Assembly: GCA_910579925.1 (NCBI GenBank)
Contig: CAJTVY010000005.1
Location: forward strand, 16,948-80,947
Direction: 5' to 3'
From: an uncultured Dorea sp.
GTDB taxonomy: Bacteria > Bacillota > Clostridia > Lachnospirales > Lachnospiraceae
DNA length: 64,000 nt
A program made the position numbers and the translations under genes. The notes beneath the pieces were generated by a model. It saw only the letters and a program-made list of their open reading frames with translations. It was not told the DNA's origin and did not search any database. Below, one piece after another: positions 4,825 to 30,823 of this stretch. The stretch's first letter is position 1. The number at the start of each line of letters is the position of its first letter.

Positions 4825-6859
4825 GACGATTAACGTAGGATTCATCGGCAATCCAAATTGCGGTAAAACCACGCTTTTTAACGCATTTACCGGCGCCAAC
4901 TTAAAGGTGGCCAACTGGCCCGGCGTAACGGTGGAAAAGAAAGAAGGAAAGACTGTCTATGAAGGACAGGAATTTAAACTGATCGACCTTCCCGGTATCT
5001 ACAGCCTGACTTCCTATACAATGGAAGAAACTGTCTCCCGGGAATGTATCATGAGTGATGAAGTAGACGTCATTGTGGATGTCATTGACGCCTCCTGCCT
5101 GGAACGCAACCTTTATCTGACGCTTCAGCTCATCGAACTTGGCAAGCCCGTGGTGCTGGCTCTGAACATGATGGATATCGTGGAGGAGAGGGGCATGGAA
5201 ATCGACCTTCACCGCCTTCCGGAAATGCTTGGCGTTCCTGCCATTCCTGTATCCGCACGCAGGAAAACGGGTCTGTCTATTCTGATGCATGCCGTTGCTC
5301 ACCACAGTCAGTATGCCAGTCAGAGTCCGTTCATCCATCACCACACGGGCAAATCCTCCTCGCACATGCACAACCATCATGATGAGTACGCCATGGTTTA
5401 TGAAGATTATATAGAAGACAAGATTGATATCATAATCGGTCTTCTTACAGAAAAATATCCCAATGTATGCAATCCCAGATGGCATGCCATCAAACTGCTG
5501 GAAATGGATCAGCAGGTGACGCGGCACCATCCCCTTCCTTTAGAGGATGTGGTTGACCGCAGCTACGAGAAAGACATCATTAACCAGAAGTACGATTTTA
5601 TCGAGGAAGTCATTGAGGAGATTCTGGTAAATAAATCCGCAAAGGAAGAATCTACTGACAAGATCGACCGGCTTCTTACACACAGATGGTTCGCTCTTCC
5701 CATCTTCCTTGGGATTATGGCGCTGGTATTCTTCCTCACATTTACCATCGGCGACTGGTTAAAAGGGTATTTTGAGATTGCATTAGAACAGATCTCGGAG
5801 CTTACTTCCAGCAGCCTGCACGCACTTAATGTCAGTCCCTTGCTCCAGTCTCTGATCGTTGACGGAATCATCTCCGGCGTCGGCGGAATTCTGACCTTCC
5901 TGCCCAATATCTTCATTCTCTTCCTGGCTCTTGCCTTATTGGAAGACAGTGGATATATGGCCAGGGTTGCTTTCGTAATGGACGACATTATGAGCCGTCT
6001 CGGACTTTCAGGTCGTGCCTTTCTTCCCCTGCTTCTGGGATTCGGGTGTTCTGTTCCTGCAATCATGGCGTCGCGGGCCCTTGAGCATCCCAGAGACCGG
6101 TTTAAGACCATACTGGTCACGCCGTTTATGTCCTGCAGTGCAAGGCTTCCTATTTACGTCCTGTTTTCCTCGATGTTCTTTGGGAAATATGCCATGATCG
6201 TATGTTATTCCATGTATCTGCTGGGGATCGGGGCAGCCATTGCGACTGCTTACATCTTATCCAGGATTGACGGAAGCAAGGCAGAGCATGCGCTGTTAAT
6301 CGAACTGCCGGAGTATAAGTCTCCCAATACCCGCACCATCTTCATCTATGTGTGGGAGAAGATCAAGGACTATCTGACCAAAGCCGGAACCGTCATCTTT
6401 GTGGCTTCCGTAATCATGTGGGTACTCTTAAATTTCGGTCCCAGAGGGTATGTCACGGACATCACACAAAGTTTCGGATCGCTGGCCGGAAAGGCAATTG
6501 TCCCACTGTTTCGTCCTGCCGGACTGGGGTACTGGCAGATTATCGTTGCTTTGATTGCCGGGATTGCCGCAAAAGAGGTTGTGGTATCCAGCTGCAGCGT
6601 ATTGTTTGGTATCCAGAACATTACCACAGCCGGCGGCATGGACGCCATGGTCGCAACCCTTGATTCTATTGGCTTTGGAGCTGCAAATGCATACGCCCTG
6701 ATGGTATTCTGTCTTCTGTACGTTCCCTGCACTGCGACGATTGCAACGATCCAGAGAGAACTGAAAAGCTGGAAACAGACTCTGGGGATTCTGGTATTCC
6801 AGGTGCTGATTGCATGGGGGATGAGCGTAATTGTTTACCAGATCGGGCTGCGCTTCTAA
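4817..6859 (+). CDS. feoB: Ferrous iron transporter FeoB
   Basis: G-domain motifs GNPNCGKTTLFNAFTG and DLPGIYSL, followed by a polytopic gate domain. The start is ATG 4817 (MNKTINVGF). It carries an unusual His-rich insert at 5300-5380. Confidence 0.95.
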   Translation: MNKTINVGFIGNPNCGKTTLFNAFTGANLKVANWPGVTVEKKEGKTVYEGQEFKLIDLPGIYSLTSYTMEETVSRECIMSDEVDVIVDVIDASCLERNLYLTLQLIELGKPVVLALNMMDIVEERGMEIDLHRLPEMLGVPAIPVSARRKTGLSILMHAVAHHSQYASQSPFIHHHTGKSSSHMHNHHDEYAMVYEDYIEDKIDIIIGLLTEKYPNVCNPRWHAIKLLEMDQQVTRHHPLPLEDVVDRSYEKDIINQKYDFIEEVIEEILVNKSAKEESTDKIDRLLTHRWFALPIFLGIMALVFFLTFTIGDWLKGYFEIALEQISELTSSSLHALNVSPLLQSLIVDGIISGVGGILTFLPNIFILFLALALLEDSGYMARVAFVMDDIMSRLGLSGRAFLPLLLGFGCSVPAIMASRALEHPRDRFKTILVTPFMSCSARLPIYVLFSSMFFGKYAMIVCYSMYLLGIGAAIATAYILSRIDGSKAEHALLIELPEYKSPNTRTIFIYVWEKIKDYLTKAGTVIFVASVIMWVLLNFGPRGYVTDITQSFGSLAGKAIVPLFRPAGLGYWQIIVALIAGIAAKEVVVSSCSVLFGIQNITTAGGMDAMVATLDSIGFGAANAYALMVFCLLYVPCTATIATIQRELKSWKQTLGILVFQVLIAWGMSVIVYQIGLRF

Positions 6860-12338: not shown

Positions 12339-12959
12339 TCATTCTCCCCGATACATCATCTCAAGCACATGGGCGGTCCCTTCAAGACCAAGCCGGCCGG
12401 CGTTCAGAAGAATCTGATGAGATAATGCACTGCCCCACTCAAGACCGGTGTGGGACTCATAATAATACTTTCGTTCACGGTCAATTCTTTTAATCTTATC
12501 TGCCGCCTTCTTCTCAGACATGTCATATCTGTCTGCAATCCTTCTGATACGATCCTCAAGATCCGCACAGATAAAGACATCCAGACAATTTGGATCATCT
12601 TTCAGAATGTAACCGGCACACCTTCCTACAATAACGCACGGTCCTCTCTCTCTGAGTTTACGGATGATCTCAGTCTGCAGCTCATATACCTGTTCATTCA
12701 GCGGCTGGGTATATTCTTCTGACCGTATGGAATCCCGGTACTCCATCGGTGCAATCACATATCCTGTAAGAAAACTGTTCAGCGTTGTCTCATCAACTGC
12801 TCTCGCCGTCTCCTCCCGGATATCAAGCTTCTCTGCCGCCATCCTCACCAGATTGTTATCATAAAGCGGAATATCAAGTCTGGTTGCAAGTATATTGCCG
12901 ATCTGGTGTCCTCCGCTTCCGAACTGGCGTCCAATGGTAATAATCTTATGTACTGCCAT
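12339..12959 (-). CDS. Cytidylate kinase-like family protein (P-loop)
   Basis: ITIGRQFGSGGHQIGNILATRLDIPLYDNNL is typical of the Cytidylate_kin2-type proteins common in Clostridia. Confidence 0.75.
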   Translation of the reverse strand: MAVHKIITIGRQFGSGGHQIGNILATRLDIPLYDNNLVRMAAEKLDIREETARAVDETTLNSFLTGYVIAPMEYRDSIRSEEYTQPLNEQVYELQTEIIRKLRERGPCVIVGRCAGYILKDDPNCLDVFICADLEDRIRRIADRYDMSEKKAADKIKRIDRERKYYYESHTGLEWGSALSHQILLNAGRLGLEGTAHVLEMMYRGE

Positions 12960-13044
12960 ATGTTTTCCTCCCTTCCGGTATAAAGTTTCCTTATCATCAT
13001 TATACCTCAGATACGGGAAAAAATACCAGTAAAATGTAGCAATT

Positions 13045-13557
13045 CTACCTAACTTCTATCAGAAACCCTTTGTCCTTCAACACATCTTCTATCATGTTCA
13101 GAGTTTCTTCTTTATCTGCAAGAATCTTATGATAATGGTAATTGGAGGTGATATTTTTAAGCGGACTGGATTTGCCGCTCTGAATATCTTCTATGAACTC
13201 AGCTACCATCCTGCGGGAATCAATATTCAGTTCTGCCTCTATATGGCCGTACACTCGATGGTTGACCATGACGTTTTTAACCATTCCCCCAAGATCAACG
13301 ATGGCACAGAGTTCCTCATAAAGCTGCTCATCCGTATGCCGCACCTTGAACACTCTGCTTACCGACTTCACCGTATTCAGAATATAGCCTCTGTTCGTGG
13401 ATATGATATCATAACCCGCCGCACGCAAAAGAGCAATATCCTGCACGATCACCTGCCTGCTCACATGGTAAATGGCGGCCAGCTTCGATCCTGACAGCGG
13501 AATTCCGCTCTTTTGAACTCTCTGAATGATTTCTTCTCTTCTGTCCGAACCAGTCAT
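13045..13557 (-). CDS. niaR: NAD-biosynthesis transcriptional repressor NiaR (HTH + 3H domain)
   Basis: RREEIIQRVQKSGIPLSGSKLAAIYHVSRQVIVQDIALLRAAGYDIISTNRGY plus a His-rich 3H C-terminal domain. It follows nadABC. The start is ATG 13557, after GGAGGAGG. Confidence 0.85.
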   Translation of the reverse strand: MTGSDRREEIIQRVQKSGIPLSGSKLAAIYHVSRQVIVQDIALLRAAGYDIISTNRGYILNTVKSVSRVFKVRHTDEQLYEELCAIVDLGGMVKNVMVNHRVYGHIEAELNIDSRRMVAEFIEDIQSGKSSPLKNITSNYHYHKILADKEETLNMIEDVLKDKGFLIEVR

Positions 13558-13598
13558 ACTGTTCCCCTCCTCCAAGGATCCTGCATTTCCAATTATCA

Positions 13599-14453
13599 TC
13601 ATGCCAATGCATGAAGATTCTTTAAGGAAATATCCAGTATGGGTGCGGAATGGGTCAATGCCCCGCTGGAAATGTAATCTACCCCCAGGGATACCAGCCT
13701 TCCGATATTTTCTTTCGTCACATTCCCCGAACATTCCGTCTCGGCGCGCCCGTCGATCAGACGGATCGCTTCTCGCATCTCTTCCGTAGACATATTATCC
13801 AGCATTATGATGTCCGCTCCCGCTTCAACCGCTTCCTTTACCATATCGAGATTCTCTACCTCAACTTCAATCTTCCTTACAAAAGGCGCATATTCCTTCG
13901 CCATGCAAACTGCTTTCGCAACACTTCCCGCAGCACCGATATGATTGTCCTTCAGCAGCACGCCGTCTGACAGATTATACCTGTGATTGTATCCTCCGCC
14001 CACACGAACCGCATATTTTTCAAATATCCGCATATTCGGCGTCGTCTTTCTGGTGTCCAGAAGCTTCGTCCGGCTTCCTGCAAGAAGCGACGCAACCGAA
14101 TGCGTATACGTTGCGATTCCGCTCATGCGCTGCAGATAATTCAGAGCGACCCGTTCTCCCGATAAGAGCGCCCGGATATCCCCCTTCACCTTTCCCATCA
14201 TCTGGCCGTTACTGACTTTGTCTCCGTCTTTACAGTAAAATTCCACCTCCACAGTCTCATCCAGAAGCTGAAATACCCTCTCAAACACCTCAAGTCCGGC
14301 AATAATTCCGTCCTGTTTACAGATAAGGTCCACTTCTCCTGCTACGGCCTCTTTCATGACAGAATTTGTAGTTACATCCTCACTGGAAATATCCTCTTTT
14401 AGCGCCTCCAGGATTAACTGATCTGCCTGAAGGGTCATCGTAATCTTATTCAT
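13599..14453 (-). CDS. nadC: Nicotinate-nucleotide pyrophosphorylase (quinolinate phosphoribosyltransferase)
   Basis: LLDTRKTTPNMRIFEKYAVRVGGGYNHRYNLSDGVLLKDNH..IMLDNM. Confidence 0.95.
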   Translation of the reverse strand: MNKITMTLQADQLILEALKEDISSEDVTTNSVMKEAVAGEVDLICKQDGIIAGLEVFERVFQLLDETVEVEFYCKDGDKVSNGQMMGKVKGDIRALLSGERVALNYLQRMSGIATYTHSVASLLAGSRTKLLDTRKTTPNMRIFEKYAVRVGGGYNHRYNLSDGVLLKDNHIGAAGSVAKAVCMAKEYAPFVRKIEVEVENLDMVKEAVEAGADIIMLDNMSTEEMREAIRLIDGRAETECSGNVTKENIGRLVSLGVDYISSGALTHSAPILDISLKNLHALA

Positions 14454-14457
14454 ATCC

Positions 14458-15702
14458 TTATTGTTCTCCTTTCATATTATCTCTGTCAGAAATAATTTTC
14501 TGTGCAGCACGCCTTGCAAATACCAGGCTTTCCAACAACGAATTACTAGCCAGACGATTGGCGCCATGGACACCGTTACAACTGGTCTCTCCCACGGCGT
14601 ACAGACTGGCCATGGACGTGCGGCTGTCCGAATCCACCCAGATCCCGCCCATGAAATAATGCTGTGCCGGAACCACCGGTATCCATTCTTTCAGCACATC
14701 GTATCCTTCTTCCAGACAATGCTGATAGATATTAGGAAAATGCTTCAGAATCTTCTCTCTTGGAATCGGCTCTAAAGAAAGCCACACATGATCTGTACCC
14801 TCTTCCTCCATCTGTCTATGGATCGCTTTCGTAACCACATCCCTTGGAAGCAGTTCATCTACAAACCTTTCTTTTTTCTCATTATATAATACTGCGCCTT
14901 CTCCCCGCACAGATTCTGAAATCAGGAATCTACGTCCTGGTTTTTTCGAATAAAGCGTCGTAGGATGTATCTGCACATAATCCAGATTCTCCAGGCGTAT
15001 CCCATGATTCTTCGCTATCTCTACCCCGTCTCCCGTCAAATGCGGATAATTCGTGGAATGCTGGTATTTTCCTCCGATCCCGCCGGTTGCCAGGATCGTA
15101 TTTTCTGCATAGATCCGGTATTGCTTTCTGACGCATTCTTTCTTAGCAGCGTTTCTCAAATCTTTTTCATCGACATCCTGCCAGACGTCCCGTACATCCT
15201 CTGCCAGAATTCCCGTACATACACCGTCTTCTTCAATAATATCCGTCATCGAGACATATTCGTAGAACGCTACGTTAGGAAGTTCTCTCACCCGCTCCAG
15301 CAAGGTACTGGTAATCTCTTTCCCGGTAATATCCTCATGAAACAGAATCCGCGGCCTCGAGTGCGCTCCTTCCCTGGTATAAGTAAATTCTCCGTTCTCC
15401 TTCTCAAAACGGACTCCGTATTCCACCAGATCCTCTATGACTGTTCTGGATCCCCGGATCATAATATCCACCGATTCCTTCCGATTCTCATAATGCCCCG
15501 CCCGCATGGTGTCCTCAAAATAACCGTCATAGTCGTCCTCATCTCTCTGTACACAGATCCCTCCCTGGGCAAGGAACGAATCGCTGCTTTCGGCATCTGA
15601 TTTCGTAATCATGACAATCTTCAAATCTCTCGGAAGCTTCAGAGCGCTATAAAGGCCCGCCACCCCGCATCCTACTATTACAACATCTGTATGTATCTCC
15701 AT
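14458..15702 (-). CDS. nadB: L-aspartate oxidase
   Basis: FAD motif DVVIVGCGVAGLYSAL, plus SFLAQGGI and LYAVGETSCNGVHGANRLASNSLLE. Confidence 0.95.
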   Translation of the reverse strand: MEIHTDVVIVGCGVAGLYSALKLPRDLKIVMITKSDAESSDSFLAQGGICVQRDEDDYDGYFEDTMRAGHYENRKESVDIMIRGSRTVIEDLVEYGVRFEKENGEFTYTREGAHSRPRILFHEDITGKEITSTLLERVRELPNVAFYEYVSMTDIIEEDGVCTGILAEDVRDVWQDVDEKDLRNAAKKECVRKQYRIYAENTILATGGIGGKYQHSTNYPHLTGDGVEIAKNHGIRLENLDYVQIHPTTLYSKKPGRRFLISESVRGEGAVLYNEKKERFVDELLPRDVVTKAIHRQMEEEGTDHVWLSLEPIPREKILKHFPNIYQHCLEEGYDVLKEWIPVVPAQHYFMGGIWVDSDSRTSMASLYAVGETSCNGVHGANRLASNSLLESLVFARRAAQKIISDRDNMKGEQ

Positions 15703-15762
15703 TATCTTTTATCCTCCGCTGGGGAACCGCCGCAGACCGGCATTTCAACTATTTACAGATCC

Positions 15763-16668
15763 CTACCGTGCAAGTTCCAGCATTCTCTGAAGCGGTCTTA
15801 CTGATTCTGCACGGAGTTCCTCTGTTACCTGGATTTCATTTTCACCATTTTTCAGTACATCCCTTATCTTCTCAAGGGTAACTTTCTTCATGTCATGACA
15901 GACAGGCTTTGTTGCCGTAAAATAGAACTTCTTCCCAGGATTCTGCTTTTCAAGTTCAGATCGTACGCCGGTTTCCGTACATATGATAAATTCCATACAC
16001 TCACTCTTTCCTGCATACGCAATAATTCCCGATGTGCTGCCAATATAATCCGACATCTCCCTCACTGCCTGGGGACATTCCGGATGGGTCAGGATCTTTG
16101 CCTGCGGATGCAGTTCCTTTTCTTTAAGAATCTCCTGTACCTGTATCTCCTCGTGAACCGGACAGTAGCCTTGATTATATACAAAATGCTTCTCCGGCAC
16201 CTGCTCTGCTACAAAATGCGCCAGATTCCTGTCCGGTATGAAGAAAATGTTCTGGTTCGGCAGCGCTTTCACAATCTTTACTGCATTTGCAGATGTGACG
16301 CAGACATCCGAATGCCTCTTTAGTTCGGCTGTGGAATTGATATAGCAGACTACCGCCAGATCTTCATACTCATTTCGCATCCGCCGGATCGTTTCTTCAT
16401 CTGCCATATGAGCCATAGCACAATCCGCCGTCGTGTCCGGCATTAGGACGGTCTTGCCCGGATTCAGTATTTTGGCGCTCTCTCCCATGAAAGAAACTCC
16501 GCAAAAGACAATCGTCTGCTCTTTTAAATCTACCGCCGCCTTGCTAAGATAGTAGGAATCTCCAATATAATCTGCAATCTCCTGGATCTCAGAATTTACA
16601 TAATAGTGCGCCAGAATTACCGCATTTTTCTCCTTCTTCAACTCCTGGATTTCTTCTGTAATATTCAT
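15763..16668 (-). CDS. nadA: Quinolinate synthase
   Basis: AVILAHYYVNSEIQEIADYIGDSYYLS..HPECP.. The track start is TTG 16692. ATG 16668 (MNITEE) follows AAGGAGA with a 9-nt spacer. Confidence 0.95.
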   Translation of the reverse strand: MNITEEIQELKKEKNAVILAHYYVNSEIQEIADYIGDSYYLSKAAVDLKEQTIVFCGVSFMGESAKILNPGKTVLMPDTTADCAMAHMADEETIRRMRNEYEDLAVVCYINSTAELKRHSDVCVTSANAVKIVKALPNQNIFFIPDRNLAHFVAEQVPEKHFVYNQGYCPVHEEIQVQEILKEKELHPQAKILTHPECPQAVREMSDYIGSTSGIIAYAGKSECMEFIICTETGVRSELEKQNPGKKFYFTATKPVCHDMKKVTLEKIRDVLKNGENEIQVTEELRAESVRPLQRMLELAR

Positions 16669-16700
16669 GAGTGTTCGTCTCCTTTTTTTCAAACTTGTAC

Positions 16701-16741: not shown

Positions 16742-16996
16742 TTACAAAAACAAGTTTACATCTTCCTGAAATTCTCTCTTTTTCATGCATAAGTCATTCA
16801 GAAGGCCCTGCTGTTCCTCAAGAAGCCCCAGAATCTCCCAGTCGGCATCCGGGCAATTTTCATACATAAATTCAAGCCTTTGGTAATATTCATTGATCTC
16901 CATGTCCTCCTCTTCCTCTCTGCTGCGAATCTGCTTATTCATTTGTCTTAATTTTTCCGCCTTTTGGGAGATTATCTTCCTATCAATTCCAACCAT
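16742..16996 (-). CDS. Small (84 aa) acidic helical protein, last gene of the T7SS operon
   Basis: MVGIDRKIISQKAEKLRQMNKQIRSREEEEDMEINEYYQRLEFMYENCPDADWEILGLL.. The RBS GAGGAG lies 6 nt before ATG 16996 and starts immediately after the upstream stop codon. No family was recognised. Confidence 0.6.
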   Translation of the reverse strand: MVGIDRKIISQKAEKLRQMNKQIRSREEEEDMEINEYYQRLEFMYENCPDADWEILGLLEEQQGLLNDLCMKKREFQEDVNLFL

Positions 16997-17007
16997 CAAA
17001 TTCTCCT

Positions 17008-17799
17008 CTATTCTATTAATAGATATACTTCCATCCCCAGGATCTCTGAGTATTCTTTTTCTTTTCGTGTTTTAACTTTTTCAAGATATTCGCATTTTTC
17101 CCTCATGCGGTCATTCGGAAGCAGATTTCCCGCCCTGTCATATTCCATAGCGTTTGCAATCTCCAGCACCAGTGCATGGCTGGGTATCTCTGGTCTTCCC
17201 CCCTTAGTTCCTGCATAACAGAATCGGCCTGGGTCTTCCTGGTCTACTGAATTTCTGACTCTGATCACTTCTTGATACGTCTCCTTTACAAGATCTTTTA
17301 GTTCGTCTGTCACAGTCTCATCGCCTGTTTCCAGATGTTGTTCCAGAATGCTTAACTGTCCCTTCTTCAGGTATTCGATATAGAGATTATTTCTCAAGAA
17401 GATATATTCCAGTCCCATAGTAGATTCCCTCTCATACAGGTTCTGATCTTCTGGCTTCGGACAGGCAAATCCCAGACTGCAGTTCCTTAATTCCTCATCC
17501 AGCCGCTTAAGGTCAAGCATTTCCAGCAGATACGCATCAAGATTTGCCCTGTAGACCGCCTGCATACACAGGTAACGGTAACTAAGACGCCCCCGGCCTC
17601 CTCCTTTTAGCAGTCCCTTCTCTTTACACAGTTCATGGTTATAGCGATAGATATACGGATTCTCTGAAATCTCCTCTGCCGATGGGACTTTTAGTCTGTC
17701 CGCAAGCGCATATTCACCCATAGTTTCCTCCTCTGACTTCATAAAATACCCAGTCGTTCCTGCTGCAAGAACCAGCAGAAATACAACATACTTTTTCAT
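17008..17799 (-). CDS. Exported or membrane-anchored protein, candidate immunity protein for the adjacent LXG toxin
   Basis: MKKYVVFLLVLAAGTTGYF is a signal peptide or signal anchor without a lipobox Cys. The rest is a ~240-aa soluble domain. It lies immediately downstream of the toxin. An alternative GTG start at 17820 gives a GTGA overlap with the toxin stop. Confidence 0.6.
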   Translation of the reverse strand: MKKYVVFLLVLAAGTTGYFMKSEEETMGEYALADRLKVPSAEEISENPYIYRYNHELCKEKGLLKGGGRGRLSYRYLCMQAVYRANLDAYLLEMLDLKRLDEELRNCSLGFACPKPEDQNLYERESTMGLEYIFLRNNLYIEYLKKGQLSILEQHLETGDETVTDELKDLVKETYQEVIRVRNSVDQEDPGRFCYAGTKGGRPEIPSHALVLEIANAMEYDRAGNLLPNDRMREKCEYLEKVKTRKEKEYSEILGMEVYLLIE

Positions 17800-17816
17800 C
17801 TCATTCCTCACTTGGC

Positions 17817-19256
17817 TCACTGAAACCTTACAGACTGAATCTTTACATATGCATCCCCGGCATGATTCTTCTCAGGTTCCCGATAATCAGAATCCTGTGG
17901 CCTGATATAATAAATACGCCCCCAGGACGACACCTGCACCAGCCCGTCTTCCGTAAGCCCGGTCACTGCCATGGCATGCCCGCCGTCCATCTGGGCAAGT
18001 TCACCTTCTTCATCCGCAAGTCTTACCGGACAGGTACTGATAATCACACGGTTTCCTCGCTGCGCTTCTTCTTTGCATCTGCCGTATACCTCGTCCGTAC
18101 TGCATTTGATGTTCGTCATACTTACGTCAATGCCGCGCTTTTCCATATACCGCTCAAAACGGTAAATCCTGTCATCCTGCGTTGTTCCGCGACCGATTGT
18201 CGACGAAAAATCTTCATTCTCGTCATAGTCATCCTGCTCTGGCCACTGGTTCCATGCCCTGTTGTGATTATCGCTGGCACAATAGAGATCGATGATAAGA
18301 GGGTTATAGTTGACACATAGAATACCGTTCGCACTTTCCAGAAAGAGAGGAAATCCAAAAATTTTCTCGAATTCTTCTTCCTTTCTTCTATATTCATCTA
18401 CAATTATATTCGCAAAGGCCACGTACCCGCAGCCCTCGCTGTTGAGTTTTATTAAAAGTTTTTCAATCTGTTCATCAGAATAGCCGGCGTATTCTTCATA
18501 ACTAAGAACCAGATCTCTGATCATTTCCCGTTCTGATGAACTTCCTTTCCTCCACATTTCACAGGGTCCGTTCTGATCCCCGCCTTGATCCTGATACCCT
18601 ATTGCCAGATGAATTCCGGCATTTTTAAGTTGGCGTCTCCACTCCTGTCCAGGGTCTGACAGATAGGAACCGTTTTGAAACGCACCCGTAATCTTTCGCA
18701 TTCCCGTCTGGATCAGCAGCCCCATATCCTCCGTCGCTTTAAACAAATGCCCTGTATCTGCGGCGATTTCATCAAACTTTTGCGTCTTTTCTCTCCAACG
18801 CTCATACATCCTCTGGCTGTTCTCTGCCAGACGTTCATACTGTCCTGCTTTCCATCGATAATAGGAATAAAGAAAAGCATCCTCTGCCGCTGTCATATAG
18901 TTTCTGTACATGGTCTCGCCGGACTGATAATTCTTCTTCATGTTCTGTGCGTTCTCCATCTGGCAATAGATATTTTCCCCATCCAGAACCTCGTCTCCCA
19001 CGAGGCTGCTTAAACTCTGGAAGTCAGCCCTGTCAGCCACATTGGCGATCCGCATTGCTTCGATTACAGTCTCATAGTCCTCGAGCTGCTGCGCCAGCCC
19101 ATCGAAAGCTTCACTTTCAATCTCTTTATCTTCTGCAAAATCTGCAATACTCCTGACGACAGTCTCCAAAGCCCGGCAGTCCTCCTCCATACGTTTCAAG
19201 GCTTGTGCACACTGCCCCCTCATATCTGCCGGATTCAGATAATCGCCTCTCTGCAT
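17817..19256 (-). CDS. LXG-like T7SS polymorphic toxin with a papain-fold Cys/His C-terminal domain
   Basis: The N-terminal ~200 aa are helical and LXG-like (..ESEAFDGLAQQLEDYETVI..). The C-terminal domain has NSEGC276GYVAFANI (codon 18429-18431) and DGGH427AMAVTG..VQVSSWG (codon 17976-17978), which resemble papain CGSCWAF / HAV.VGY / NSWG. It sits directly after essC and a small helper gene. Confidence 0.7.
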   Translation of the reverse strand: MQRGDYLNPADMRGQCAQALKRMEEDCRALETVVRSIADFAEDKEIESEAFDGLAQQLEDYETVIEAMRIANVADRADFQSLSSLVGDEVLDGENIYCQMENAQNMKKNYQSGETMYRNYMTAAEDAFLYSYYRWKAGQYERLAENSQRMYERWREKTQKFDEIAADTGHLFKATEDMGLLIQTGMRKITGAFQNGSYLSDPGQEWRRQLKNAGIHLAIGYQDQGGDQNGPCEMWRKGSSSEREMIRDLVLSYEEYAGYSDEQIEKLLIKLNSEGCGYVAFANIIVDEYRRKEEEFEKIFGFPLFLESANGILCVNYNPLIIDLYCASDNHNRAWNQWPEQDDYDENEDFSSTIGRGTTQDDRIYRFERYMEKRGIDVSMTNIKCSTDEVYGRCKEEAQRGNRVIISTCPVRLADEEGELAQMDGGHAMAVTGLTEDGLVQVSSWGRIYYIRPQDSDYREPEKNHAGDAYVKIQSVRFQ

Positions 19257-28072: not shown

Positions 28073-29929
28073 TTATTGTTCCCCAACCATATTCAGAAGA
28101 CGGTTCGTGATATCTGCCATATTCACCGATATCCGTTTACTTGTTTCTGAAATCTGTGCATTGTTATCCATCACGTTGCGGATTTTATCCATCTCTGTCG
28201 CTGTCCGTTCTACATCCGATGCATTTTTACGAACCATCTCTGCAATCCGGTCTACTTCTACATTCGCATGCTTGATTTCTTTCACGACATTTCCAAAAAT
28301 ACTGGTCGTTTCCTCTGCCATTGCCAGTCCTTCACTGACCGCCTGGATGGAATCGGCAATCAGTTCGCCGGTTTCCTTTGCAGCCTGGGAACTTCTGGCC
28401 GCCAGATTCCCTACCTCTGCCGCTACCACCGCAAATCCTTTTCCCATATCTCCGGCCCGCGCAGCCTCGACCGATGCGTTCAGTGCAAGCAGATTCGTCT
28501 GGTTTGCAATGGATTCGATCTTTACCGCAATCTTTCCGATTTCTTTGGACATCTCGCTGATATTGCTGATTGCCCCCTCTAATACGTCCATCTGTTTCTG
28601 GGTGTCCAGGATCGCAGCGACGGCTCCCTTTGTTGCCCTGGCCACGTCCACAGATGCATCGGCGCTGCTGTTGAGTTCCTTTACAAGCGTTCCCATAACC
28701 TGATTCAAGTCGTCCACAGACTGCTTCTGCTGCTCTGTTCCCTGGAATATTTCATCGGCGCTTGACAGGGTTTTCCTGGACACGCTGCCAAGTTCACCGC
28801 ATACTTCCTTAATATTTGCAATATCTGATTTCTGCTGTATCAGTAACCGTTCGTTATCGCTCATGCTTGACCGGATGTTCCCCACCATCTTATTGATATC
28901 TTCAGAAAGCCGAATGAATTCCGGATTACTTCCCTCCTGCACAGTGACCCCAAAATCACCGGCCGCTATCTTTTTCACTGATTCCACAATACGATTGATT
29001 CCGCTGACAATCTGTAAATCCACCGTCCTGTTAATCACAAGCAGAAGCACCATAAAAATCATAAACATACTGACTGAAACCACCAGAGTCTGGCTTAACC
29101 TGTTCTGATAATATTCTCTGGCCGGAAGAAACATTCCGATTATTTCTTCGTCATATTTTTCGGCCTGGTAATATCCGGTCGTCCCGTCTACCTTTACTTT
29201 GCCCTGTCCTTCCTCCGCTGCTAATCCGTTCTCCAATGCATCTTTCCCGATGAGTTCCCGATTGGGATGGGCAAGTATTACGCCGCTTGCCGCATCAACA
29301 GCATATGCATAACCTTTCTCTCCATAATCTACCTCTCCAAGGACTACGTCTATCTTCGTATTTGCAAGCGTGTCTTCCAGGATTTCCGGTCGGATTCCCA
29401 CCTGTACCACGCCCTCGTCGTCCTTTCTTGCCACGCCTATGTATTGAATCACAACGCCTTCCCTTGCATTTTCCTGAGGTTCCTGCACAATTTCTACAGA
29501 AGGATCCCTGATAATCTCCAGAAATGCCGCCGACTGTTCGCCGCTGCTCATGTCAAATCCGATATATTCACTGATCGTGCTTTGAGTGATCATTCCCTCT
29601 TCATTAATGACATGAAGCTCATTGACCATTAATTCTTCACAAATCTCCTGCATTCTTCCTCCATCCGTAAGAACCGTGGGATCCGTGGCAAGAATCTCTG
29701 CGAAAGCACGGGTTTTGACCAGATTATTCTCACCCACGCTTTTGACCAGCTTTTCAATCTCCTCGTCATTGCTTTTCAGCTTTTCTTTTACCATATTCAG
29801 TCTTTCTTGTGCAGATTCTGTGTTCGTGCTTTTTGACGAAAACGTCTGCAGCATGAAAATAGCCCCAATGGTCACGAGCAACGCTATGACCATATAACTT
29901 AGCAATCTTCTGGTAAACATTTTCTTCAT
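28073..29929 (-). CDS. Methyl-accepting chemotaxis protein (N-TM, Cache-like periplasmic sensor, HAMP, MA domain)
   Basis: [36 protein letters not shown], two TM helices flanking a ~260-aa extracellular domain, and a HAMP domain (IAAGDFGVTV). Confidence 0.92.
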   Translation of the reverse strand: MKKMFTRRLLSYMVIALLVTIGAIFMLQTFSSKSTNTESAQERLNMVKEKLKSNDEEIEKLVKSVGENNLVKTRAFAEILATDPTVLTDGGRMQEICEELMVNELHVINEEGMITQSTISEYIGFDMSSGEQSAAFLEIIRDPSVEIVQEPQENAREGVVIQYIGVARKDDEGVVQVGIRPEILEDTLANTKIDVVLGEVDYGEKGYAYAVDAASGVILAHPNRELIGKDALENGLAAEEGQGKVKVDGTTGYYQAEKYDEEIIGMFLPAREYYQNRLSQTLVVSVSMFMIFMVLLLVINRTVDLQIVSGINRIVESVKKIAAGDFGVTVQEGSNPEFIRLSEDINKMVGNIRSSMSDNERLLIQQKSDIANIKEVCGELGSVSRKTLSSADEIFQGTEQQKQSVDDLNQVMGTLVKELNSSADASVDVARATKGAVAAILDTQKQMDVLEGAISNISEMSKEIGKIAVKIESIANQTNLLALNASVEAARAGDMGKGFAVVAAEVGNLAARSSQAAKETGELIADSIQAVSEGLAMAEETTSIFGNVVKEIKHANVEVDRIAEMVRKNASDVERTATEMDKIRNVMDNNAQISETSKRISVNMADITNRLLNMVGEQ

Positions 29930-30208: not shown

Positions 30209-30823
30209 ATGATCTACGGGTATGTGCGTGTAAGCACCAGGGAGCAGAATGAGGGCAGGCAGATGCTGGCTCTGCATCAGAGGGAAGTGCCGGAGAAGAA
30301 TATTTATATAGACAGACAGTCCGGCAAGGATTTTGATCGCCCTATGTACCACAGGATGCTCAGAAAATTGCAGGAAGACGATTTAATCTACGTGAAGAGC
30401 ATCGACAGGCTTGGCAGGAACTATGAGGAGATATTAGAGCAGTGGAGATTTCTGACGAAAGAAAAGAAGGTCGATATCGTAGTAATTGATATGGAACTTC
30501 TGGACACCAGACGAGGCAAGGATCTGATGGGTACGTTTCTCAGCGATATTGTTCTGCAGGTTCTTTCTTTTGTAGCTGAAAATGAGCGCAAGAATATTCG
30601 CGAACGGCAGAAAGAAGGAATTGAGGCGGCCAAATTACGGGGCGTACAGTTCGGACGTCCCAGACGTGACGTACCGGATGATTTTATTCAGATCTGCTGC
30701 CGATGGAGGAACGGGCAGATTCTTGGAAAAGAGGCGGCCAAACTCTGCGATATGCCGCTGACTACTTTTTATGGACGGGCAAGAGAACAGATTGAAGTAT
30801 TGAAGCGCACATGGGAGTATTGA
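30209..30823 (+). CDS. Small serine recombinase (resolvase/invertase family) with a C-terminal HTH
   Basis: The catalytic motif is MIYGYVRVSTREQNEGRQ, followed by DRLGRN and a C-terminal HTH (GKEAAKLCDMPLTTFYGRA). It is one of the few plus-strand genes. No partner mobile-element genes were seen. Confidence 0.9.
   Translation: MIYGYVRVSTREQNEGRQMLALHQREVPEKNIYIDRQSGKDFDRPMYHRMLRKLQEDDLIYVKSIDRLGRNYEEILEQWRFLTKEKKVDIVVIDMELLDTRRGKDLMGTFLSDIVLQVLSFVAENERKNIRERQKEGIEAAKLRGVQFGRPRRDVPDDFIQICCRWRNGQILGKEAAKLCDMPLTTFYGRAREQIEVLKRTWEY

Follow-up and report, generated by a model that had tools for sequence, protein, structure and literature searches.

The type VIIb secretion locus and its predicted toxin gene

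The window analysed here is a stretch of 64,000 nucleotides (nt) from an uncultured Dorea sp. (Lachnospiraceae), taken from assembly GCA_910579925.1, contig CAJTVY010000005.1, positions 16,948 to 80,947. Its minus strand harbors the locus of a type VIIb secretion system (T7SSb), followed by a gene whose 479-residue product joins an LXG-like N-terminal carrier to a C-terminal domain with a predicted papain fold, and which is read here as a secreted toxin. T7SSb LXG toxins shape competition among Gram-positive bacteria, and they have barely been studied in the Lachnospiraceae, which are major gut commensals. A preliminary description of this DNA, made from its letters alone, had placed the open reading frame (ORF) at 17817-19256 without giving a strand; the ORF is borne out, and it lies on the minus strand. 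The genes of the locus follow one another on this strand in the order given below.

26093..27766, minus strand: membrane protein in the EsaA position, 557 residues, assigned by position only, with a partial ABC2_membrane_3 match
25767..26084, minus strand: WXG100 protein (EsxA-like), PF06013 at 31.1 bits against a gathering threshold of 27.3
25319-25822 and 25020-25322, minus strand: two small proteins without a Pfam match, in the EssA and EsaB/YukD positions
23888..24985, minus strand: EssB/YukC, PF10140 at E 9.4e-73
19594..23847, minus strand: EssC (FtsK/SpoIIIE ATPase), 1417 residues, PF01580 at E 1.3e-49
19269..19577, minus strand: Lap1-like helper, 102 residues, TIGR04197 at 54.6 bits against a cut-off of 26; probable start TTG 19577, ribosome-binding site AAAGGAGGAG
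17817..19256, minus strand: toxin gene, 479 residues, LXG-like carrier and predicted papain-fold Cys peptidase domain; TGA stop at 17817-17819
17008..17799, minus strand: candidate immunity protein, 263 residues, N-terminal hydrophobic anchor and a domain of ~230 residues; probable start ATG 17799, ribosome-binding site GAGGA
16742..16996, minus strand: small acidic helical protein, 84 residues, isoelectric point 4.5, kept with the carrier clade

Upstream of the toxin gene, WXG100, YukC and EssC were found by Pfam, and the T7SSb locus is regarded as complete. This secretion system is divergent from the Bacillus and Staphylococcus models, since the proteins in the EsaB/YukD, EssA and EsaA positions have no Pfam match or a partial one, and the EsaA-position protein has only 557 residues.

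The toxin ORF starts with an ATG that is preceded, 8 nt 5' of it, by an AGGAGG ribosome-binding site. The starts of three neighbouring genes were refined because of their ribosome-binding sites. The longest ORF of the helper spans 19269-19688, and the 102-residue protein that starts, probably, at TTG 19577 matches the length of its homologues. For the candidate immunity gene the longest ORF is 17008-17820 (270 residues from GTG 17820) and overlaps the stop codon of the toxin; its start is probably ATG 17799, which gives 263 residues, the same as the database gene call P0202. The small protein, whose longest ORF is 16742-16999 (85 residues), probably starts at ATG 16996. The genes of the cassette are closely packed, each with its own ribosome-binding site, and the helper ends 13 nt upstream of the toxin gene. 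Near its C-terminus the helper carries FTEFD, an instance of the FxxxD motif that is present in 28 of the 29 members of the helper family and that, in Lap1, is an EssC-targeting signal according to a 2026 review (PMC13492133). Gene order is kept in 26 close loci, all of which have the EssC/helper arrangement next to the toxin.

A predicted papain-fold domain at the C-terminus

The features of the C-terminal half of the toxin are located as follows; counts refer to an alignment of 101 representative sequences that is described below.

17820..18584, minus strand: predicted C-terminal clan-CA (C39-like) cysteine peptidase toxin domain, residues 225-479, from AlphaFold2, Foldseek and profile search
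18573..18584, minus strand: GG[DN]Q motif (G225 G226 D227 Q228); Q228 in 98 of 98, G225 in 96 of 101
18429..18431, minus strand: TGC codon of Cys276, the predicted nucleophile, which opens helix 276-289; 101 of 101
17976..17978, minus strand: CAT codon of His427, the predicted general base, which opens a beta-strand; 101 of 101
17919..17930, minus strand: S443-S444-W445-G446, equivalent of papain N175-S-W-G; Ser443 is a candidate for the third triad position

The AlphaFold2 model of residues 205-479, built on a 21-sequence alignment, has a mean predicted local distance difference test score (pLDDT) of 84.4 and a predicted template modelling (TM) score (pTM) of 0.85, and pLDDT exceeds 90 from about residue 225. 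In this model Cys276 opens helix 276-289, His427 opens strand 427-434 and SSWG lies on the next strand. When the model was compared with the PDB by Foldseek, all of the top 50 matches were papain-fold proteins of clan CA, with E-values from 1e-4 to 1e-2. They include IdeC/IdeS/Mac-1, the phytochelatin-synthase-like Alr0975, staphopain, Lpg2622, interpain and the Cpe1 toxin/immunity complex (9l5u), together with the Citrobacter rodentium CdiA-CT (8ssm), a Josephin-type clippase, calpains and AvrPphB. These matches and the invariant Cys276 and His427 support a papain fold for the C-terminal domain, as the preliminary description had proposed, with catalysis predicted.

The motifs on which that description relied are present, namely YQDQGGDQNGP at residues 221-231, NSEGCGYVAFANI with Cys276 and DGGHAMAVTGLTEDGLVQVSSWG with His427. 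The first of them had been taken for a Gly/Gln-rich linker and is instead a conserved part of the domain, as G226 is kept in 91 of 101 sequences beside the still better conserved G225, and Q228 in every sequence without a gap there. The domain accordingly measures ~255 residues (~225-479) and not the ~210 first given, because GG[DN]Q is conserved and the confidently modelled part begins with it.

Full-length homologues of the toxin number 45, with 50-79% identity; every one comes from Dorea or another member of the Lachnospiraceae, most of them from mouse gut. Cys276 and His427 are invariant in the 30 of them that were compared. A search of 1.84 billion representative proteins with a profile of residues 205-479 retrieved 1,082 clusters at E<=1e-3, 584 at E<=1e-10 and 132 at E<=1e-30. 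The domain family is large (>1,000 clusters), has no Pfam model of its own and, judged by these profile matches, the predicted toxin family is far beyond chance resemblance. In the alignment of 101 representatives, at 21-42% identity, the sole invariant columns are C276, N283, F300 and H427, so that the pair proposed as catalytic in the preliminary description is kept throughout. Strong conservation is also found at G275 (100), Y278 (99), E274 (98), D329 and D349 (97 each) and N330 (93), and in the SSWG columns (S443 100, S444 98, W445 99, G446 100). Position 443 is almost always Ser, except in several copies within giant proteins, where it is Asp ('VDSWG').

In papain, the sequence around the catalytic His159 reads H-A-V-A-A-V-G and is followed by N175-S-W-G. 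The stretch H427-A-M-A-V-T-G ... S443-S-W-G aligns with it at the same spacing, the third position falling 16 residues after the His. From this motif match, Ser443 is inferred to be a candidate third triad residue. Q228 sits 48 residues before Cys276 and is a probable candidate for the oxyanion-hole Gln.

The conserved glycines ahead of the domain allow a different view of its function, in which it would be a self-processing peptidase, with G225-G226 as a C39-style double-glycine autocleavage site that frees it from the carrier, or else a deamidase- or transglutaminase-type modifier, in either case not a degradative toxin. C39 peptidases and Cpe1 do cut after Gly-Gly (PMC12136450), GG[DN]Q is nearly invariant, the domain recurs as internal repeated copies in giant proteins, a layout read as that of processing peptidases by Zhang et al. 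2012 (PMC3482391), and proteins annotated as papain-fold deamidases are among weak matches in the BFVD database. The motif itself argues otherwise, as its second Gly is replaced by Ala or Ser in some members while the Gln is invariant, it falls within the region modelled with confidence, and the residues upstream of it are unlike double-glycine leaders. Moreover, in LXG-type proteins the domain is the sole catalytic module, placed at the extreme C-terminus and inherited together with a partner of its own, as is characteristic of toxin domains. A self-processing or modifying role is thus considered very improbable.

Family relationships of the domain

No meaningful match came from single-sequence searches of the toxin in Pfam, NCBIfam, PDB sequences, PHROGs and PADLOC, so that the protein is unassigned in curated libraries, and the preliminary description was right to call its domain unassigned. 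A relationship to Peptidase_C39_2 (PF13529) appears in the relatives: 16 of the 101 representatives match it weakly (best E 4.8e-7), mostly over the half that contains the His. Most scores lie under or near the gathering threshold of 24 bits (P0113 26.6, P0087 21.0, P0168 18.1), and the window toxin has no match to this family at E<=0.1. A match of the C-terminal profile to designed WD40 'WRAP-T' repeats was discarded as an artefact of summed tiny per-repeat scores.

In Foldseek searches of BFVD, weak matches were obtained to proteins annotated as papain-fold deamidases and to phage proteins whose unverified annotations read tape measure, phi29 wall hydrolase, lysozyme and Tse1-like; these phage matches hint faintly at peptidoglycan. 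Within an envelope-directed toxin, the domain could then be a peptidoglycan amidase or endopeptidase, comparable to the NlpC/P60-type Tae effectors of type VI secretion systems (T6SS), which have periplasmic immunity proteins. In keeping with this, the partner encoded downstream is exported or a lipoprotein, and toxins that hydrolyse the cell wall by means of a papain fold form a recognised class (Zhang et al. 2012, PMC3482391). Membership in NlpC/P60 or CHAP was dropped, however, as none of the 101 members matches these Pfam families and neither of them is among the top 50 PDB matches, which are protein-cleaving peptidases or phytochelatin synthase instead; the viral matches that favour a wall hydrolase are themselves weak. 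This more specific form of the envelope reading is regarded as rather unlikely.

The N-terminal carrier and module swapping

The carrier, residues 1-204 (18645..19256, minus strand), is helical and LXG-like, and recurs with another C-terminus in the protein P0048. Its position equivalent to the canonical L-x-G, taken from an hhalign alignment, reads I-E-S (EIESEAF), and a conserved LVGDEVLDG motif occupies residues 85-93. When the profile of the full-length family was compared with PDB sequences, it found only coiled coils and, weakly, WXG100 structures, by way of its helical N-terminal positions.

The profile of the N-terminus finds P0048 (521 residues, L054:1293-2858) at E 1e-73 over residues 1-201. 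The remaining ~320 residues of this protein match neither the toxin profile nor any Pfam family and may be another unassigned toxin domain; its contig stops at the gene, so that no neighbours can be read for a helper or a small protein. Among P0047-P0057 most share the C-terminal domain with the window toxin, and P0048 alone shares only the carrier. Carrier and toxin domain therefore recombine independently. Such independent recombination is the defining behaviour of polymorphic toxins.

The exchange is also seen from the side of the toxin domain, which in relatives is joined to a Pfam-recognised LXG domain (P0087 at 64 bits, P0102 at 28.3 bits, P0047 at 27.8 bits). Eleven of the 101 representatives have an LXG match (best E 2.3e-17), three a WXG100 match and one an EspC match; the domain is thus fused to LXG, WXG100-like and EspC-like N-termini, and it also occurs in giant multidomain proteins, as expected of a polymorphic toxin. 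A Sec signal is absent from all 50 toxins examined, each of which has a helical WXG/LXG-like N-terminus of ~110-220 residues. Together with the place of its gene next to essC and a Lap1-like helper, these features support the assignment of the window toxin, by functional class, to the LXG-type T7SSb effectors, with EssC-dependent secretion as a prediction.

In the giant proteins P0062 (7,686 residues), P0088, P0093 and P0137 (2,366-7,686 residues), 2 to 5 or more copies of the domain are present, interspersed with HEYGH metallopeptidase-like modules, a core of transglutaminase type and a C-terminus resembling ADP-ribosyltransferases.

The downstream gene and the small acidic protein

Fifty loci were analysed, that of the window and those fetched for 49 relatives. 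A family named here after its 270-residue ORF is the adjacent downstream gene in 33 of them (34 by jackhmmer), across different N-terminal carriers, and accompanies toxins from 81% down to ~32% identity. An N-terminal anchor, signal peptide or lipobox is found in 26 of its 34 proteins, including all 22 in the clade of the window; the protein of L010, just under the hydrophobicity threshold, was counted as anchored as it has the same anchor as that of L014. The 53 database homologues of this family are all unnamed and have no Pfam domain. The AlphaFold2 model of the window protein (pLDDT 78.7, pTM 0.80) gave no match to the PDB in Foldseek (best E 0.9), and the protein may have a new fold. Since the family follows the toxin domain, is mostly anchored or lipidated and has no known fold, the 263-residue protein is likely to be the cognate immunity protein: in tracking the toxin domain, the family shows the distribution expected of one.

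The helper and the small acidic protein track the carrier and therefore behave as secretion partners would. Both are present in 26 of 26 loci of the close clade. The small protein occurs in no distant locus, and outside the clade the helper is found beside the L048 toxin, whose N-terminus is of the same kind, and in L053, with a marginal match in L047. No family match was obtained for the small protein, and a Pfam scan of 12 of its homologues gave no consistent family; it is possibly a secretion partner or a cytoplasmic antitoxin.

In seven loci, divergent toxins are followed by genes unrelated to the 270-residue family. The products are lipoproteins (L035, L039, L048), proteins that have two hydrophobic segments (L052 and L053, both from Enterococcus) or soluble proteins of 370-390 residues (L044, L045), and all of them may be alternative immunity families.

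Proposed mode of action and site of the target

The whole reading proposed here, which is held to be probable rather than firmly established, is that of a cysteine peptidase toxin delivered by the T7SS, acting on the cell envelope and countered by membrane-anchored immunity. The N-terminus and the Lap1-like helper with its FxxxD motif, possibly together with the small acidic protein, would form a targeting complex that is recognised by EssC. The C-terminal ~255 residues would act as a C39-like cysteine hydrolase of clan CA with a papain fold, in which Cys276 would serve as nucleophile and His427 as base, with Ser443 in the position of papain Asn175 and Gln228 as the probable oxyanion residue. 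Once exported, the enzyme would attack a peptide or amide bond outside the cytoplasm of Gram-positive neighbours, either in the peptides of peptidoglycan or in a protein that is exposed at the surface or anchored in the membrane. The co-transcribed, anchored 263-residue protein would protect the producer and its kin by binding the toxin at the outer surface of the membrane and blocking it there. Action at this outer surface, or in the cell wall, of target cells is proposed because the paired immunity candidate is membrane-anchored.

Several observations weigh against this proposal. The window toxin has no match to Pfam LXG (PF04740, gathering threshold 26.5 bits) even at E 0.1, and an hhalign comparison of its N-terminal alignment with Pfam-valid LXG domains of the same toxin family is weak (E 0.042, probability ~1%). 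The LXG-like character that the preliminary description gave to the N-terminus is borne out by a helical carrier encoded after EssC and a TIGR04197 helper, and by the LXG fusions of relatives, but not by the Pfam threshold itself. The structural matches of the C-terminal domain are remote (TM-scores 0.2-0.48, identity 9-19%), with no close solved structure, and the reaction type (protease, peptidoglycan amidase, deamidase or transglutaminase) is therefore unreadable from them. Ser at the third triad position is atypical. Eight of the 34 immunity homologues, in at least two other toxin subclades, are signal-less. Finally, in L021, L022, L023 and L025 an intact toxin gene is accompanied by no gene of the 270-residue family within 12 kb by tblastn, and only the small acidic protein, of 64-79 residues, follows it. 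The toxins of these loci, which resemble P0032, keep Cys and His and have a 7-residue deletion in a low-confidence loop after D329-N330. Their genes are located as follows:

near 6001-6800 in each of these loci, near 3008-3826 in L021: P0032-like toxin genes

The last two observations also bear on another explanation, in which the same toxin would have a lethal target in the cytoplasm, as Cpe1 does. The antitoxin that matters would then be the small protein, or the signal-less forms of the 270-residue family, and the anchored protein would guard only against incoming toxin in transit or have another role. The signal-less homologues and the four loci that keep only the small cytoplasmic protein beside an intact toxin are consistent with it, as are the weak link of the family to Peptidase_C39_2 and the presence of Cpe1 and of the C. 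rodentium CdiA-CT among the Foldseek matches, Cpe1 being a C39-like protease that acts in the cytoplasm (PMC12136450). A precedent for two separate layers of immunity is given by EsxX, one LXG toxin that is neutralised by cytoplasmic ExiAB and membrane ExiCD (PMC12744356). However, every member of the 270-residue family in the clade is anchored, the small protein is distributed with the carrier clade instead of the toxin domain, as would be expected of a secretion partner more than of an antitoxin, and the similarity to Cpe1 is marginal (E 3e-3, TMq 0.24). Also, we know of no mechanism by which T7SSb toxins of such size could cross the membrane of the target cell. A cytoplasmic target is therefore judged unlikely, and action in the envelope is preferred. 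The preliminary description had taken the exported downstream gene as a hint of an extracytoplasmic target; this holds within the clade, where the protein is anchored in all 22 loci that carry it, but loses strength with the signal-less homologues found elsewhere.

A bolder formulation would make this protein the founding example of a family of T7SS cysteine peptidase toxins (>1,000 clusters) that would cleave a component of the envelope and so, acting outside the membrane, kill or inhibit neighbouring Gram-positive cells, with an immunity protein of new fold and possibly a second, cytoplasmic safeguard. In this full form the proposal is tentative, and it is thought somewhat more doubtful than not.

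Boundaries of the locus

Just past the small gene lies a near-consensus promoter (16730-16702) of the sigma-70 type, with 11 of 12 positions matching and an extended -10 TG; since an unrelated operon (quinolinate synthase) starts with it, the cassette ends after the small gene. A terminator scan past this gene found nothing convincing. The region downstream of the cassette, 12339-16692 on the minus strand, resembles an operon for nicotinamide adenine dinucleotide biosynthesis with a putative regulator, as judged from reading the translations alone. On the upstream side, the T7SS locus adjoins the following genes:

28073-29929, minus strand: methyl-accepting chemotaxis protein
30209-30823, plus strand: serine resolvase

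The serine resolvase could mark a mobile or recombination-prone boundary.

Comparison with known systems

The window toxin has much in common with the LXG toxins TelA-D of Streptococcus intermedius, EsaD, TspA, EsxX and TslA of Staphylococcus aureus and those of Bacillus subtilis: a gene downstream of essC, a helical carrier of ~200 residues, a TIGR04197 helper that carries FxxxD, a toxin domain at the C-terminus, an immunity gene next to it (here a candidate) and module swapping. It differs from them in an N-terminus that stays under Pfam LXG and in the I-E-S at the L-x-G position. Toxins of this secretion system that act outside the cytoplasm and are countered by membrane or lipoprotein immunity have precedents in TelC/TipC (Table 1 of PMC13492133) and in TslA with its lipoprotein immunity (PMC10730906). 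Peptidase activity is not among the T7SSb LXG toxin activities named in the 2026 review (PMC13492133).

This class of toxin activity is not yet characterised experimentally for T7SSb. If the proposal is true, proteolysis would be a new activity class of T7SSb antagonism in gut commensals, and the cassette would provide a new effector class together with a new inhibitor scaffold for papain-fold enzymes. Should the target prove to be an envelope component, a step outside the cell at which the surface biology of Gram-positive bacteria is vulnerable would also be indicated.

Papain-fold toxin domains were predicted computationally in 2012, so the case of the window is unsurprising in principle, but it is concrete and widespread. 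A full-text literature search joining LXG, C39 peptidase and type VII secretion brought up only that study, Zhang et al. 2012 (PMC3482391), in which Tox-PLC39, a C39-related papain with the triad C, H, D, is associated with delivery by type II secretion systems, T6SS and PVC (Photorhabdus virulence cassettes), and not by the T7SS. The window domain has the predicted papain fold in common with Peptidase_C39_2 and Tox-PLC39; the weak link described above is one of its relatives to Peptidase_C39_2.

The best structural matches (E 1e-4 to 1e-3) are clan-CA peptidases secreted by Gram-positive bacteria, of families C66 (IdeS/Mac-1), C47 (staphopain) and C10 (SpeB/interpain), and the phytochelatin-synthase-like Alr0975 (C83). 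They share with the window domain a Cys at the N-terminus of a helix, a His on a beta-strand, and H-A-x-x-V-x-G ... S-W-G with the third position at His+16. These enzymes lie at TM-scores of 0.3-0.5 and identities of 9-16%, and they are Sec-exported virulence factors or metabolic enzymes rather than polymorphic toxins of a T7SS with immunity partners.

A functional parallel is Cpe1 with its partner Cpi1. Cpe1 is a C39-like toxin of ~140 residues from T6SS and contact-dependent inhibition systems; its cytoplasmic targets GyrB and ParE are cut after Gly-Gly, and its immunity partner is likewise cytoplasmic (PMC12136450). Both toxins are clan-CA cysteine peptidases, by prediction in the case of the window, with a Cys/His core, a Foldseek match between them and an immunity gene, here a candidate, next door. 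Whereas Cpe1 belongs to Gram-negative hosts, has a Cys-His-Asp triad and shows 15% identity to the window domain, the latter measures ~255 residues, with extra helices, GG[DN]Q, a Ser in the third position, a T7SS as its secretion system and an anchored immunity candidate.

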